Origin: Escherichia coli
Lineage (GTDB): Bacteria; Pseudomonadota; Gammaproteobacteria; Enterobacterales; Enterobacteriaceae
Assembly (NCBI RefSeq): GCF_050920415.1
Contig: NZ_CP169309.1
Length of the DNA: 64,000 nt
Strand: one strand, 5' to 3'
Below are positions 9,269 to 39,802 of the stretch, piece by piece. Position 1 is the stretch's first letter. Every line of letters begins with the position of its first letter. The translations under genes were made by a program, and so were the position numbers. Below the pieces are notes generated by a model, which worked only from the letters and a program-made list of their open reading frames with translations, was not told the origin of the DNA and did not search any database.

Positions 9269-10996
9269 TTAGCAGATTGTTTTTTCTTCAATGAACTTGT
9301 TAACCAGCGTCATTAACTCGTCCGTTGTCGGTTGAGCAAGAGCCTGCTCTGCTAACACCTTCGCATCTTCGAAGTTCGTGTTACGGATAATCTTCTTAAT
9401 GCGCGGGATAGAAATGGCGCTCATAGAGAATTCGTCCAGACCCATCCCCAGCAACAGAAGTGTAGCACGTTCATCGCCAGCAAGCTCACCACACATGCCA
9501 GTCCATTTGCCTTCAGCATGAGAAGCATCAATAACTTGCTTGATCAAGTTCAGCACGGACGGTGACATTGGCTGGTAAAGGTGTGAAATCATATCATTAC
9601 CACGGTCAACTGCCAGAGTGTACTGCGTTAAATCATTGGTGCCGATACTAAAGAAATCAACTTCTTTGGCTAAATGACGTGCAATTGTTGCGGCCGCTGG
9701 TGTTTCCACCATTACGCCGATTTCAATTGACTCGTCAAACGCTTTACCTTCGTCGCGCAGTTCCTGTTTGTAGATTTCGATCTCTTTGCGCAGTGCACGC
9801 ACTTCTTCAACAGAGATGATCATCGGGAACATGATGCGCAATTTACCGAAAGCAGAGGCACGCAGGATAGCGCGGAGCTGATCGCGAAGGATCTCTTTAC
9901 GATCCATCGCGATACGGATAGCGCGCCAGCCGAGGAACGGGTTCTCTTCTTTCGGGAAGTTCATGTATGGCAGCTCTTTGTCGCCGCCGATGTCCATGGT
10001 ACGAACGATAACCGCTTGTGAGCCACACGCTTCAGCTACTGCTTTGTAAGCAGCAAACTGTTCTTCTTCAGTGGGCAGCGCGTCGCGGTCCATGAACAGG
10101 AACTCAGTACGATAAAGACCAACGCCTTCAGCGCCGTTACGCTCAGCACCTTCAACGTCACGAACCGTACCGATGTTAGCGCACACTTCTACCTGGTGAC
10201 CGTCCAGCGTAATAGCTGGCAGATCTTTCAGTTTAGCAAGCTCTGCTTTTTCAGAAGCCACTTGCTCCTGAACAGCGCGCATTTTATCAATAACTTCGTT
10301 GGTTGGATTGACGTAAACCTGATTATTTACGGCATCCAGAATCAGATAGTCGTCATTTTTCACCTGAGAGGTGACGCTACCGGTACCCACGATAGCAGGC
10401 AGTTCCAGAGAACGCGCCATGATAGAGGTGTGGGAAGTACGGCCACCCGCGTCGGTGATGAAACCCAGCACCTTCTTCAGGTTCAGCTGTGCGGTTTCGG
10501 ACGGCGTCAGATCAGCGGCAACCAGAATGACTTCATCCTGAATGGCGCTCAGGTCGATAATCTTCAGGCCCAGGATGTTGCGCAGCAGGCGCTTACCGAT
10601 ATCACGTACGTCAGCCGCACGTTCTTTCAGGTATTCATCATCCAGTTCTTCCAGGGCAGAAGCCTGACCTTCGATAACTTCATGAGCAGCTGCGTCAGCT
10701 GTCATGTGCTTATCTTTAATCAGGGCTATGATTTCCTGCTCCAGCTCCTCATCTTCGAGCAGCATAATATGCCCTTCAAAGATGGCTTCTTTTTCTTCAC
10801 CGAACGTTTCACCAGCTTTCGTTTTGATCGTTTCCAGCTGGGCTGATGCCTTGGCACGACCGCTCAGAAAACGTTCAACTTCCTGATCAACCTGGTCGGC
10901 AGAAATTTTTTTCCGGTCAATGACAATTTCGTCTTCTTTCAGAAGCAGAGCTTTACCGAAAGCGATACCCGGGGATGCTAAAATGCCTGAAATCAT
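9269..10996 (-). CDS. ptsI: PTS enzyme I
   Basis: 575 aa [19 protein letters not shown]..., PEP-utilising enzyme family. Confidence 0.97.
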
Positions 10997-23552: not shown

Positions 23553-23610
23553 GCAGATAGTAAAAAAGCGCCTTTAGGGCGCTTTTTTACATTGGTGGGT
23601 CGTGCAGGAT
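23553..23610. repeat. terminator palindrome plus 18-nt copy of the tRNA-Lys 3' end (att-like direct repeat, copy 1)
   Basis: gcagatagtaaaaaagcgcctttagggcgcttttttacat followed by tggtgggtcgtgcaggat, identical to the first 18 nt of the lysV complement at 39727. Confidence 0.6.
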
Positions 23611-23707: not shown

Positions 23708-23765
23708 CGCAGATAGCAAAAAAGCGCCTTTAGGGCGCTTTTTTACATTGGTGGGTCGTGCAGAA
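23708..23765. repeat. second tandem copy of the terminator/att-like repeat (island-proximal boundary)
   Basis: gcagatagcaaaaaagcgcctttagggcgcttttttacat followed by tggtgggtcgtgcag (15 nt of the tRNA-Lys 3' end); near-identical to copy 1, about 155 bp away. Confidence 0.6.
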
Positions 23766-23826
23766 TCCTTATTCAGACTCTAACCTTTTGAAAAATCAAG
23801 AGATATAACACTAACAACCATCACTG

Positions 23827-33253: not shown

Positions 33254-34281
33254 AAAACGACACGCCCGATAGCGGAAAACGGAATGAGACACAGGCTCTG
33301 CGTGATGCCTGCTACGGCAATTTTTTTGCTGTCACCGATCTGCTGTACCGCAGTCGTGGCGATGCCATTTCACTGAGAACGGAACCGGAGCAGGAAACGG
33401 TTCATTTTCGTGCCAGTCCTGACATCGCGTTTCCCCTGCGGGATATTGAATCGCTGGAAAAAAATACCGCCGATCAGTACGTAATGACCACCCGATTTAT
33501 GGGGTTATCCGGCAGTTCATCACCATTGCCGGGTTACTATCTGGATGAGATGGCCTGGGTGCAGGCACAGGAAGGCGGCAGCACAACGGCGGATTTCCTG
33601 AACCTCTTCACCCACAGGTATACGCAATTTTTGTACCACATCTGGCGAAAATACCGCTGGTATATCAGTTTTCGTAATGGTGGAACGGATAAGATCTCAC
33701 AGCGGATCTATGCGCTTATCGGGCTGGGCAACCCGCGTGTACGGGAACGGCTGGATATCTGCCACAGCAGGCTGCTGGCTTACGCCGGAATATTATCCGG
33801 CCCCGGACGTTCACCGGCAATGATCTGCGATCTGATCGCACACTGTTTTGATCTGCATGATGTCAGACTGGAAAACTGGCAGTTTCGTCGGGTGGCTATT
33901 CCACCTGATCAGCAAACCCGGCTGGGAAGGTGTGAGCCGGATGCCGAAGGGAAGATGCAGGGTAAATCGGTGCTGGGCGTTAATTTTGTTCTCGGCTCGC
34001 GCGTACCGGATTACAGTGGGAAATTTATGTTGTGTATCAGTAACCTGTCACTGCCGCGATATATGGCCTTTTTGCCCGACGGTGAGGAATACCTGGCGCT
34101 GACCACCTTCGTGGCTTTCCTGTTGCGCGATCAGTTTGCCTGGGAGCTGCGGTTAAGTCTTGTGCCAGAGCAAATTGGTGGAATGCGGCTGGGGGATAAG
34201 AGAAGCTCTCAACTGGGGAGAACCAGTTTTATTGGTAAGCCGCCACGCGAACCCTTTGTGACCATACGGGTCAGGGGATAA
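33217..34281 (+). CDS. tssG: T6SS baseplate subunit TssG (ImpH/VasB family)
   Basis: 354 aa overlapping the tssF 3' end by 37 nt; conserved FMGLSGSSSPLPGYYLDEM block typical of TssG. Confidence 0.8.
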   Translation: MEGKNRSVPPDVENDTPDSGKRNETQALRDACYGNFFAVTDLLYRSRGDAISLRTEPEQETVHFRASPDIAFPLRDIESLEKNTADQYVMTTRFMGLSGSSSPLPGYYLDEMAWVQAQEGGSTTADFLNLFTHRYTQFLYHIWRKYRWYISFRNGGTDKISQRIYALIGLGNPRVRERLDICHSRLLAYAGILSGPGRSPAMICDLIAHCFDLHDVRLENWQFRRVAIPPDQQTRLGRCEPDAEGKMQGKSVLGVNFVLGSRVPDYSGKFMLCISNLSLPRYMAFLPDGEEYLALTTFVAFLLRDQFAWELRLSLVPEQIGGMRLGDKRSSQLGRTSFIGKPPREPFVTIRVRG

Positions 34282-34616
34282 AGCCTGTACTGGCAATTGT
34301 TCCGGCCTGCGCTTTGCGATCCGTCCTTCCAGAAAATCACTTGCCACCTTTTATGGGTCATTGTATCGTTGCGCCGCGTCTGCAAAATCAGGCGTCGGGA
34401 TTGGTCTCCCGGTTATAACTCGTTGACGGCATATGACATTTCTGTGTCATTTCTGTGCCGTGCGTTCGGCTGCACTTCTATGGTGGGGCCGGGTGGGGGC
34501 GTTGAAAGACGCGCCGGTTCCCAACGAGACCGGTAAGACCAACTCCGTCCGGTTCCACCACCCGTAAGATTGGTCTCTTCAGTGGTGGAAAATATATTCT
34601 CGTTGGAGGCCACATT

Positions 34617-35078
34617 ATGGCTGTTATTTCTGTTCATAAAGACGATTTACTTACCATCCCCTTCAGTGCCGCTACTGATTTCACCGATCTGGCTGCTCAC
34701 TGCGATCGCTTCGCCCAGACCCTGATCGAATGCCACAATCCTGCGCTAAAAATGGCGCTCTGTGGCAGGCTTAATACCTGCCTTGCACTGTTGCGGCCCA
34801 CGCTGAACGAGCCGATCCCGCCGCATCTGATTGACGGTTTTATTACGAATGATTTTCCCGATGTTTCACCCGGTTTTGAACCTGATGCAGAATCACTCTG
34901 CGATTACTGCCTGGCGCTGACACAGATACTGAATGGTCACTCACTGTTACCTGAAACCGAAACCACGCTGACCGGGCTGCTGTGCGAGCTGGTCTGGTAT
35001 TTTGCTGACAGTCTGAAAGCCCCGCACTGGATACGTACCGCTGACGGCGTACAGGTTATCGACGGGAGGCCAGCATGA
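34617..35078 (+). CDS. hypothetical protein, 153 aa, translationally coupled to the Ner-like gene
   Basis: Intact ORF; stop overlaps the next gene start (ATGA); no recognisable domain. Confidence 0.45.
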   Translation: MAVISVHKDDLLTIPFSAATDFTDLAAHCDRFAQTLIECHNPALKMALCGRLNTCLALLRPTLNEPIPPHLIDGFITNDFPDVSPGFEPDAESLCDYCLALTQILNGHSLLPETETTLTGLLCELVWYFADSLKAPHWIRTADGVQVIDGRPA

Positions 35079-35329
35079 TGCAGCCGGACTGGCATCCCGC
35101 TGATATTATCGCGGGACTGAGAAAACGGGGGACATCGCTGGCTAAGGTGTCCCGCAGCGCGGGACTGGCGTCCGCCACGCTGGCAAACGCGTTGACCCGT
35201 TCGTGGCCGCGCGGCGAAAAACTCATTGCGGATGCGCTGGAAACATCACCGGAAATTATCTGGCCCTCCAGATATTTCGATAATCAGGGCAACCGCATTG
35301 TAAGACTTATGCGAGAGCGGCGCTCCTGA
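35075..35329 (+). CDS. Ner/Nlp-family small DNA-binding protein
   Basis: 84 aa; DWHPADIIAGLRKRGTSLAKVSRSAGLASATLANAL resembles the Mu Ner / E. coli Nlp (SfsB) HTH family. Confidence 0.7.
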   Translation: MMQPDWHPADIIAGLRKRGTSLAKVSRSAGLASATLANALTRSWPRGEKLIADALETSPEIIWPSRYFDNQGNRIVRLMRERRS

Positions 35330-35365: not shown

Positions 35366-35409
35366 TCTCCCGGCTCTCTGCCTGCTTCTGCTGGCAGAGA
35401 GCCGGGAGA
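35366..35409 (+). terminator. strong stem-loop downstream of the Ner-like gene (17-bp perfect stem, no U-tract)
   Basis: tctcccggctctctgcc / ggcagagagccgggaga inverted repeat with about a 10-nt loop. Confidence 0.4.
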
Positions 35410-36219: not shown

Positions 36220-37104
36220 ATGAGCAAATTAAGCAGTGAAATGAAGGCGCTGGCGAAGAAAGCGGGCGGCAGCTTCAAAACGGTGAATGATCGTATTCAT
36301 GCCACGAAGCGGTTCAGCCAGCATTTACGCGAACTGAATATCCAGATCCAGCGGGTGGAGCAGATCAAAGTTCGCCATATCGAATGCTACATTCAGGAGC
36401 GGCTGGAGCAGGATATTGGTTTACGCACGCTGCAAAACGAAATGGCGGCGCTGCGCTCCGTACTGAGACTGGCGGGACGCCGACAGGTGGTGGAGCATCC
36501 GCGCCTGACCAATAAGGCGCTGGGGCTGTCAGGCGCTTCGCGCAACGGCACGCGCCGCGCCATTACGCCGGAACATTATGAAAAAGTGATGGAGAGCGCC
36601 CGTGCACAGGATGCGGGGCTGGCGGCAGCGGTGGAGATTGCGCGGCTGATGGGATTACGCTCGCAGGAGGCGGTACAGAGTTCACAGTCGCTGAAAACGT
36701 GGCTGAAAGCCATTTCCCGCGGCGAAACCCGGCTGAAAGTGGTGTTTGGCACCAAAGGCGGGCGTCCACGTTACACAACGATCCTGGACGCTGGTGCAGT
36801 CAGAAAGGCGGTGGAAAACGCGTTACCGATCGCCAGACAGCGCAATGGCAGGCTGATCGACAGGCCTGACCTCAAAACAGCGCTGGAGAGCTGGCACAAA
36901 CAGGCCATTAAGGCGGGACTGAAGGGGGAATTTTCCCCGCACTCACTGCGTTATGCATGGGCACAGGACGCGATCCGTTATTATCTGGCGCAGGGATTCA
37001 GCGAAAAAGAATCCCTGGCGCTGACGGCAACGGATCTGGGCCACGGCGACGGTCGCGGCCGCTGGGTGAAACAGGTGTACGGCTACCGCTGGAAGGAGGA
37101 ATAA
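36220..37104 (+). CDS. tyrosine recombinase (phage integrase family)-like protein, 294 aa
   Basis: Catalytic-residue pattern consistent with tyrosine recombinases: GLRSQEA (box I Arg), HSLRYAWAQ (HxLR), C-terminal VYGYRW (Tyr). Confidence 0.6.
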   Translation: MSKLSSEMKALAKKAGGSFKTVNDRIHATKRFSQHLRELNIQIQRVEQIKVRHIECYIQERLEQDIGLRTLQNEMAALRSVLRLAGRRQVVEHPRLTNKALGLSGASRNGTRRAITPEHYEKVMESARAQDAGLAAAVEIARLMGLRSQEAVQSSQSLKTWLKAISRGETRLKVVFGTKGGRPRYTTILDAGAVRKAVENALPIARQRNGRLIDRPDLKTALESWHKQAIKAGLKGEFSPHSLRYAWAQDAIRYYLAQGFSEKESLALTATDLGHGDGRGRWVKQVYGYRWKEE

Positions 37105-39461: not shown

Positions 39462-39726
39462 ACAATCACTCCTTAAATGTCAGTTGAAAATGACAGTGAT
39501 TGAGTGGTGCAATATTTTGTTTTCTTGAAGTTTTTTCAGCAGGAAACTGAATATGGGCCTACAAGATTTCCACCGCCAGAAGCATAGGCCCATTCGTAGG
39601 CCCATTTGCTCTGGATTCCCCGAACCCCGGAGAGAAGCATACAGACGAAAAAAAACCGTATCCTGTTGACAGTGATACGGTTTTCTTACTTCCCCGGACT
39701 CTATGAGACATCCCAAGAATGTATGT

Positions 39727-39802
39727 TGGTGGGTCGTGCAGGATTCGAACCTGCGACCAATTGATTAAAAGTCAACTGCTCTACCAACTGAGCTAACGAC
39801 CC
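39727..39802 (-). tRNA. lysV: tRNA-Lys (anticodon UUU)
   Basis: Reverse complement reads GGGTCGTTAGCTCAGTTGGTAGAGCAGTTGACTTTTAATCAATTGGTCGCAGGTTCGAATCCTGCACGACCCACCA. Confidence 0.95.

Follow-up and report, generated by a model that had tools for sequence, protein, structure and literature searches.

A probable P4-CI/P1-C4-type antisense RNA cassette in a non-phage tRNA-Lys island of Escherichia coli

Results

Genes and features of the locus

The window analysed here is a stretch of 64,000 nucleotides of Escherichia coli DNA (assembly GCF_050920415.1, contig NZ_CP169309.1), to which all coordinates refer. A gap of 335 bp separates tssG, which ends at 34281, from an ORF for a 153-aa protein (34617-35078), and this gap lies in an island of about 16 kb at tRNA-Lys that is bounded by 19-nt copies of the tRNA-Lys 3' end (TTGGTGGGTCGTGCAGGAT, at about 23592-23610 and at 39726-39744). 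A second 19-nt copy with one mismatch occurs 156 nt further on (about 23748-23766), in a duplicated 61-nt terminator/RtT-like segment; the 19-nt copies look like att repeats bounding the island. Counted from tRNA-Lys, the island holds a P4-type integrase gene, a 294-aa Integrase_1 gene preceded by an EFASI RNA, a Ner-like gene, the 153-aa gene and the leader, followed by orphan tssG/tssF genes and a vgrG-DUF4123-effector-PAAR cluster. The window is 100% identical to E. coli strain MFDS1022581, in whose annotation the island consists of a pair of integrase-type genes, the two genes of the cassette and cargo for type VI secretion; genes for P4 replication or helper exploitation are absent from it. 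In the RefSeq version of this annotation there is no RNA feature at 34476-34565.

The EFASI RNA (RF02957; 36034-36162, + strand; 99.2 bits, gathering score 51.2) lies 58 nt upstream of the 294-aa Integrase_1/Phage_int_SAM_2 gene (36220-37104), and blastn places it in the same position in 9 related loci. EFASI and STAXI are said to travel together; in the interval from the Ner-like gene to EFASI, Rfam gave no STAXI match. A motif of 17 nt, GAATNCCTGGCGCTGAC, recurs with 82-94% identity in tssG (34087-34103), in the 153-aa ORF (34905-34921) and in the 294-aa integrase gene (37009-37025), probably by chance.

The features of the gap and of the two genes behind it are as follows.

34341..34369, + strand: sigma-70-type promoter (-35 TTGCCA, 17-nt spacer, -10 TATCGT)
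34376..34460, + strand: IsrK/P4-seqA-like 5' leader RNA (Rfam isrK and c4-a1b1; pairing in 55 sequences)
34376-34395, + strand: hairpin 1 of the 5' leader, loop CAAAAU
34396-34411, + strand: hairpin 2 of the 5' leader, whose loop AUUGGUCU presents box b1, the first GGTCTC
34401-34407, + strand: box b1, UUGGUCU
34419-34425, + strand: box a1, CUCGUUG
34428..34459, + strand: hairpin in terminator position, holding a tandem repeat (34437-34457) and a dyad
34476..34565, + strand: C4/P4-CI-type antisense RNA gene (long closing stem, hairpin 1, hairpin 2)
34521-34529, + strand: recognition loop a' in C4 hairpin 2, CCAACGAGA
34536-34542, + strand: single-stranded segment b' of the C4 RNA, AGACCAA
34570..34576, + strand: target box b2, UUGGUCU, identical to b1 and complementary to b'; the second GGTCTC
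34582..34590, + strand: alternative pairing partner GUGGUGGAA, inverted repeat I7, 9/9 complementary to the 3' strand of the C4 closing stem (34553-34561)
34598-34606 (element 34598..34609), + strand: target box a2, UCUCGUUGG, inverted repeat I6, 9/9 complementary to loop a'
34617..35078, + strand: 153-aa protein gene, proposed first regulated gene
35075..35329, + strand: 84-aa Ner-like winged-HTH gene (Pfam HTH_35, 1.2e-32), proposed second regulated gene

The two downstream genes

Searches of Pfam, PHROGs, NCBIfam and PADLOC assigned the 153-aa protein to no family, a profile search against the sequences in the PDB found nothing, and a literature search by protein accession returned no papers. 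Its AF2 model (pLDDT 76.8) is a four-helix bundle with a C-terminal beta hairpin, for which Foldseek against the PDB gave only generic four-helix-bundle matches (best E = 0.07). Because 50% of the substitutions in the ORF family fall at codon position 3, we regard the ORF as a real gene. Homologues number 228 across Enterobacterales, and a scan of one genome per species yielded 67 related loci. P4 ORF151, which is similar in size and position, was rejected as a homologue (hhalign probability 0.1%).

The start of the Ner-like gene overlaps the stop of the 153-aa ORF (ATGA), an overlap that is conserved in most loci with this gene; a Ner-like match, in a few cases partial, lies directly downstream in 37 of the 67 loci (tblastn). 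The protein is assigned to PHROG 769 ('transcriptional repressor') and is SfsB-like. Beginning 37 nt past its stop, there is a perfect 17-bp inverted repeat with a 10-nt loop (35366-35382 and 35393-35409), which has no T run behind it on the + strand and may mark a transcript end or a processing site.

Promoter, 5' domain and terminator-position hairpin

Three Rfam families were found in series on the + strand of the gap in a permissive scan: c4-a1b1 (RF03163; 34363-34415; 43.1 bits, below the gathering score of 46.7), isrK (RF01394; 34376-34454; 53.2 bits, above the gathering score of 50) and the C4 antisense RNA (RF01695; 34476-34565; 68.1 bits, gathering score 45; positions 1-87 of the 87 in the model). 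At gathering thresholds, the scan of the whole window retained C4 and isrK, and its sole C4 match is the one at 34476-34565.

The promoter reached 9/12 matches in a consensus scan, and its position would put the start of transcription at about 34376, the nucleotide at which the match to the isrK model begins. The best promoter-like site in 59 related leaders is TTGCnn-17-TAtctT; 56 of the 59 have the 17-nt spacing, and in 53 exactly 6 nt separate the -10 box from hairpin 1. The leader alignment shows no conservation on the 5' side of the -35 box, and other E. coli match the gap only from about 34358 onward. The initial annotation took the entire 335 bp for a structured leader; the conserved unit is shorter and begins with the -35 box at about 34341, whereas 34282-34340 form a junction to the cargo that is not conserved.

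Behind the promoter, the two hairpins of the 5' leader (97.5% and 99.5% paired in 55 sequences; fold z = -3.8) are followed by box a1, which offers 7 bp here and 8-9 in most relatives. The hairpin after a1 has an outer stem GGCAUA/UGUGCC (96.3% paired, with one pair that is UA in 25 and CG in 24 sequences) and an inner stem of 5 bp, UGACA-UUUCUG-UGUCA, and it is followed by UUUCUGUG, an interrupted U tract. With an inner stem rich in A and U and with this interruption of the U tract, the terminator is degenerate in this copy, and a terminator scan made no call at this hairpin. In most relatives the same position holds GACGCG-loop-CGCGUC followed by U6-7, a canonical intrinsic terminator after a1, and two Escherichia relatives (L002 and L004) have no inner hairpin. 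Owing to this degeneration most transcripts probably read through, and this copy may not give rise to a separate short 5' RNA.

The tandem repeat CATTTCTGTG that the initial annotation had pointed out is present in this hairpin (34437-34446 and 34448-34457, period 11; 34434-34445 and 34445-34456 as family D1 of the repeat search), as is the dyad (ATGACA at 34433-34438, TGTCAT at 34445-34450). The 33-nt stretch that contains both folds at -13.9 kcal/mol (z = -4.9; 0/200 shuffles as good). The repeat is lineage-specific, being absent from the 54 other leaders, and we read it as the product of a duplication of 11 nt by slippage in a variant without the terminator, of the L002/L004 kind, not as a conserved element.

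The C4-like RNA and its target boxes

The C4 region has a minimum free energy (MFE) of -46.3 kcal/mol (z = -3.4), its fold is the Rfam structure, and the 3' ...CCACCACCC tail is present. Both exposed segments of this RNA are complementary to boxes on either side of it: upstream, b' pairs with b1 (7/7) and a' with a1 (7/7); downstream, b' pairs with b2 (7/7) and a' with a2 (9/9). Box a2 overlaps the Shine-Dalgarno sequence GGAGG (34605-34609) of the 153-aa ORF, whose ATG is at 34617, and the GGAG is invariant in the leader alignment. A search of the 64-kb window for further trans targets found the b box only at b1 and b2, and the 8-mer a box at one further site (45791), which is the level expected by chance. 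The 9-mer ATTGGTCTC has exactly 2 copies in the window, both within the gap, which is more than chance would give (0.36 expected).

Leader and the first 24 nt of the ORF together (34376-34640) fold at -107.7 kcal/mol (z = -4.6). The suggestion of a structured RNA leader, made earlier as one of two options, is borne out by the Rfam families and by the co-variation described below; it understates the locus, which holds a complete C4/CI-type antisense RNA gene with both of its target sets.

Conservation and co-variation of the pairings

A profile built from the aligned C4 region detected a C4 RNA directly upstream of the 153-aa-type ORF in 58 of the 67 loci, the exceptions being gene fragments, a contig end and visibly deleted leaders. 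We scored an alignment of 55 complete leaders from many Enterobacterales genera against a specified structure, with structure strings taken from the window and the Rfam model, which favours the proportions of paired cells given here but not the counts of compensatory changes.

C4 closing stem: 99.5% of cells paired; both sides changed in 9/17 pairs; 55 leaders
C4 hairpin 1: 100% of cells paired; both sides changed in 4/5 pairs; 55 leaders
C4 hairpin 2: 99.6% of cells paired; both sides changed in 4/5 pairs; 55 leaders
a'-a2: 89.5% of cells paired (93-100% in the seven inner pairs); both sides changed in 7/9 pairs; 55 leaders
b'-b2: 99.0% of cells paired; both sides changed in 5/7 pairs; 55 leaders
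a'-a1: 97.4% of cells paired; both sides changed in 7/7 pairs; 55 leaders
b'-b1: 99.5% of cells paired; both sides changed in 5/7 pairs; 55 leaders

The three C4 helices together have compensatory changes in 17 of 27 pairs, and since they are 99.5-100% paired with this many compensatory changes, we conclude that selection acts on the C4 fold. Across the 55 leaders, pairing in the combined structure amounts to 96.4-97.7%, with 36 pairs changed on both sides; column shuffles of the whole structure never reached the observed values (0/500), and in slid controls, with partners moved by 1-3 columns, pairing fell to 34-43%. For b'-b2 the duplex energy is -9.1 kcal/mol with the locus's own partner vs. 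-4.2 kcal/mol with the partners of other loci, and for a'-a2 it is -13.9 kcal/mol vs. -7.1 kcal/mol (-15.4 kcal/mol in the window); each RNA pairs with its own targets better by about 5-7 kcal/mol than with those of other loci. The boxes form discrete types, about 6 for b and more than 10 for a, which are freely combined. Such co-variation marks an antisense RNA that has co-evolved with its targets, in the manner of hetero-immune phages.

Some relatives depart from this pattern. In L002 (E. coli APEC O78, 10019-10955) box b2 is UUAGCCU and mismatches the locus's own b' (AUGCCAA), which b1 matches; the Ner-like gene of this locus is frameshifted. In L015 the entire 5' domain has another specificity than the C4 RNA and downstream boxes of the same locus. 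These hybrids suggest recombination between cassettes of different types. Single genomes hold up to six cassettes, each with a different combination of a and b boxes: Enterobacteriaceae bacterium 89 has six copies (L005, L007, L010, L013, L018 and L069), and RIT691 has the copies L012, L015, L020 and L029; many of these copies are of the stand-alone kind described below. With about 28 pairs of co-resident copies, and about 1 pair sharing both boxes expected by chance, multi-copy genomes are too few to show whether such copies avoid having both boxes in common.

Discussion

Proposed mechanism

We consider it likely that the gap is an 'immunity' cassette of the P4-CI/P1-C4 type, situated in a non-phage tRNA-Lys island, and that a processed antisense RNA made from it silences the two genes downstream. 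The membership of the RNA in its family, its fold, the complementarities and their co-variation, the overlap of a2 with the ribosome-binding site and the overlap of the two genes are directly supported by the data above.

From these and from the behaviour of related systems we infer that the cassette is transcribed, that its RNA is processed and acts in trans, and that Rho-dependent polarity follows. The sigma-70 promoter (34341-34369) would constitutively start a leader transcript at about 34376, the first 85 nt of which would form the IsrK/seqA-like domain that displays b1 and a1 and closes with the terminator-position hairpin, where termination would be partial and here probably weak. The following 90 or so nucleotides (34476-34565) would fold into a cloverleaf-like structure, from which RNase P and 3' trimming would release a stable small RNA, by analogy with P1 and P4. 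Its segments a' and b' would then pair in trans with a2 and b2 on further transcripts. As a2 reaches into the Shine-Dalgarno sequence, the 153-aa ORF would be left untranslated once a2 is paired, and the Ner-like gene, being coupled to it through the ATGA overlap, would be silenced with it; the naked RNA would probably be ended early by Rho. The upstream boxes a1 and b1 would be identical decoys that pair in cis with a' and b' in the unprocessed precursor, and a short RNA carrying them could act in trans to titrate the antisense molecule, the part that IsrK plays in Gifsy-1; the cassette would then work as a switch. A point that counts against this explanation is that the characterised effect of the Gifsy-1 5' RNA is activation, not repression. 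Also on this side are the c4-a1b1 score below its threshold, the degenerate terminator, the shorter a1 pairing, a whole-leader MFE structure that lacks the C4 fold, and downstream genes that are related neither to icd/ant of P1 nor to the replication genes of P4.

Alternative explanations

A purely cis-acting switch, in which the a1/b1-a'/b' fold and the C4 fold would open and close the ribosome-binding site of the 153-aa ORF and no processed trans-acting RNA would be made, is an unlikely account of the same sequence. It draws on the MFE structure of the whole leader, which lacks the C4 fold: a1 and b1 pair in cis with a' and b', the 3' strand of C4 pairs with 34582-34590, and the ribosome-binding site is open. 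The latter helix is mutually exclusive with the C4 fold and shows some covariation (84.7% paired; 78-100% in the seven inner pairs, six of which reach at least 89%; one pair is AU in 31 and GC in 19 leaders), and the isrK locus of Gifsy-1 has also been described with two alternative structures (PMC4825925). However, the C4 fold itself is almost invariably paired and rich in compensatory changes, and a2 and b2 repeat a1 and b1 and vary in step with the very a' and b' that those boxes match, as expected if one trans-acting partner serves both pairs; moreover, a processed RNA of about 80 nt is reported for P4, P1 and Gifsy-1 (PMC4825925 and PMC5499578). Since the whole-leader MFE pairs a1 and b1 in cis and leaves the ribosome-binding site open, it suggests that the antisense cassette itself might switch between a precursor and a mature form, similar to the two structures of isrK.

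The repeats and the dyad had also been proposed to be operator sites, and a Ner-like DNA-binding protein that could act on them, if not another regulator, is indeed encoded directly downstream. The other motifs that had been listed are likewise present: CCGGTT(C) recurs at 34409, 34514 and 34549, GGTCTC occurs at both 34403 and 34572, and GAGACC, the complement of the latter motif, occurs at 34526. We nevertheless consider DNA operators very unlikely. The tandem repeat and the dyad are missing from the 54 other leaders and stand in the place of the GC-rich hairpin of the intrinsic terminator. The remaining motifs are conserved or co-varying across the leaders and are explained base for base by RNA pairing, as the strands of RNA helices or as antisense and target boxes: the two GGTCTC motifs correspond to target boxes b1 and b2, each CCGGTT(C) is one strand of a helix (in two cases a helix of the C4-like RNA), and GAGACC spans the 3' end of loop a' and the adjoining stem. 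Their co-variation preserves Watson-Crick and G-U pairing on the + strand. In addition, nothing on the 5' side of the -35 box is conserved, loci that have the Ner-like gene and loci that lack it share the same kind of promoter spacer, and about 20 cassettes have no Ner-like gene at all.

The cassette might instead be a relic of a decayed P4-like element that no longer has any function in this strain. This would fit the degenerate terminator, the lack of P4 replication and helper-exploitation genes in the island and the clearly hybrid or broken state of some relatives (L002, L015, L017, L060 and L062), but it is highly improbable given that the window has an intact promoter, C4 fold and ribosome-binding site, that its two ORFs and both downstream boxes (9/9 and 7/7 complementary) are intact as well, that the ORF family has a coding-type substitution pattern, and that the cassette is retained in 58/67 loci from many genera.

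Distribution, annotation and wider reading

The antisense cassette occurs at the tRNA-proximal end of islands with type VI secretion or Rhs cargo, the same end module adjoining tRNA-Asn or tRNA-Phe in related loci, and it also occurs as an orphan unit. Within E. coli, 294 genomes carry the cassette. About 20 cassettes, with an ORF of about 145 aa and neither a Ner-like nor an integrase gene, stand alone between core genes, for example between autotransporter and permease genes or at tar-cheA-motB. The RNA-immunity design of P4 and P1 is thus widespread outside phages, and each cassette is proposed to gate a conserved 153-aa-type protein and often also a Ner-like regulator. A phage origin of the whole cassette was considered and rejected: only the C4 portion matches phages, weakly (six records, at most 37% of the query), and the 153-aa protein was found in 1 of 50,697 phage records, an entry of 1,472 bp (tblastn, E ≤ 1e-3).

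The identification also corrects a gap in annotation, as RefSeq has no RNA gene here and the RNA gene of relatives is sometimes translated as part of an 'ash family protein'. Positions 49-105 of Pfam PF10554 (Phage_ASH) match the translated C4/CI RNA gene, and the 'Ash family protein' of relatives (P0011, P0082 and P0088; L070, 8168-8584) is a 153-aa gene call extended in the 5' direction through the RNA gene. In the P4 record, a 'cI gene product' CDS is still annotated over the Rfam C4 match.

The first ORFs under C4/CI control in P1 and P4 (icd and kil) are toxic. One reading, which we offer only tentatively and which may well prove wrong, is that the C4/CI-type cassette and the 153-aa gene form a self-contained unit adopted by non-phage islands and chromosomes in Enterobacterales, either as a module akin to type I toxin-antitoxin or addiction systems or as a switch for excision or incompatibility mediated by the Ner-like protein. 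The RNA-repressed 153-aa gene would then possibly be harmful to growth, and the interchangeable a and b boxes may prevent cross-talk between co-resident copies. Hints in this direction are the stand-alone copies, the genome with six copies that all differ in their a/b combination, and the recombinant hybrids. If the 153-aa protein controls the stability or excision of the island, the cassette would be the switch. Whatever the role of the protein, the 55 loci provide a natural series of compensatory mutations for studies of antisense recognition.

Comparison with known systems

The reading of the gap as a P4-CI/P1-C4-type cassette follows from its three Rfam families, from the same three families in P4, and from the likeness of IsrK and its neighbouring RNA to seqA and the CI RNA (PMC4825925). 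In the immunity region of the phage P4 genome, Rfam finds C4 (74.9 bits), isrK (60.8 bits) and c4-a1b1 (44.1 bits, also below the gathering score of 46.7), in the same order and on one strand as in the window. The layout of P4 immunity (PLE promoter, seqA, CI RNA with seqB, seqC) is the same as well, with a promoter, two 5' hairpins, target box(es) and a terminator, and further 3' the processed RNA and then target boxes before the first translated ORF; a P4-type integrase gene beside a tRNA gene is also found in the island of the window. The two differ in that 21 nt lie between the isrK-like part and C4 in the window vs. about 107 nt in P4, that the island has no alpha primase, sid, delta, psu or epsilon and no vis/ORF88 upstream, that the genes downstream are unrelated to those of P4, and that the terminator is degenerate in the window, whose element is an island carrying cargo rather than a satellite phage.

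The immI operon of P1 and P7 (c4, icd, ant) encodes an RNA of the same Rfam family (RF01695), which carries a' and b' and has target pairs on both sides (a1b1 and a2b2), as in the window. Other similarities are that the downstream target takes in the first ORF's ribosome-binding site, that the second gene depends on the first ORF (in the window, as predicted from the ATGA overlap), and that differing specificities arise by matched changes in RNA and targets; the hetero-immunity of P1 and P7 was reportedly described by Citron and Schuster in 1990. The genes under control are different, however, as the 153-aa protein without a family and the Ner-like HTH_35 protein are not icd and ant, and the element that harbours the window cassette is not a plasmid prophage. 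Both CI and C4 are cited as RNase P substrates in PMC5499578.

In the Salmonella Gifsy-1 locus isrK-STnc1160/orf45-anrP, IsrK is a structural homologue of P4 seqA, and STnc1160, a processed RNA of about 80 nt downstream of IsrK, is complementary to IsrK, similar to the P4 CI RNA (PMC4825925). The 5' part of the window cassette scores above the isrK gathering threshold, and in both loci translational coupling links the first ORF to the regulator gene that follows (a coupling that is predicted in the window from the ATGA overlap). Gifsy-1 differs in that a working terminator releases the short IsrK, which activates translation, whereas the terminator of the window is probably weak; in addition, orf45 overlaps the C4-like region and the second gene encodes an antirepressor, whereas in the window no conserved ORF runs across the RNA gene. 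C4/CI antisense RNA cassettes have been in Rfam since Weinberg 2010 (PMC2864571), so that the kind of element is already known; what is unusual in the present case is its non-phage setting with type VI cargo, a 153-aa protein that belongs to no family and the existence of stand-alone copies, and of further interest is the clean natural series of co-varying specificities.
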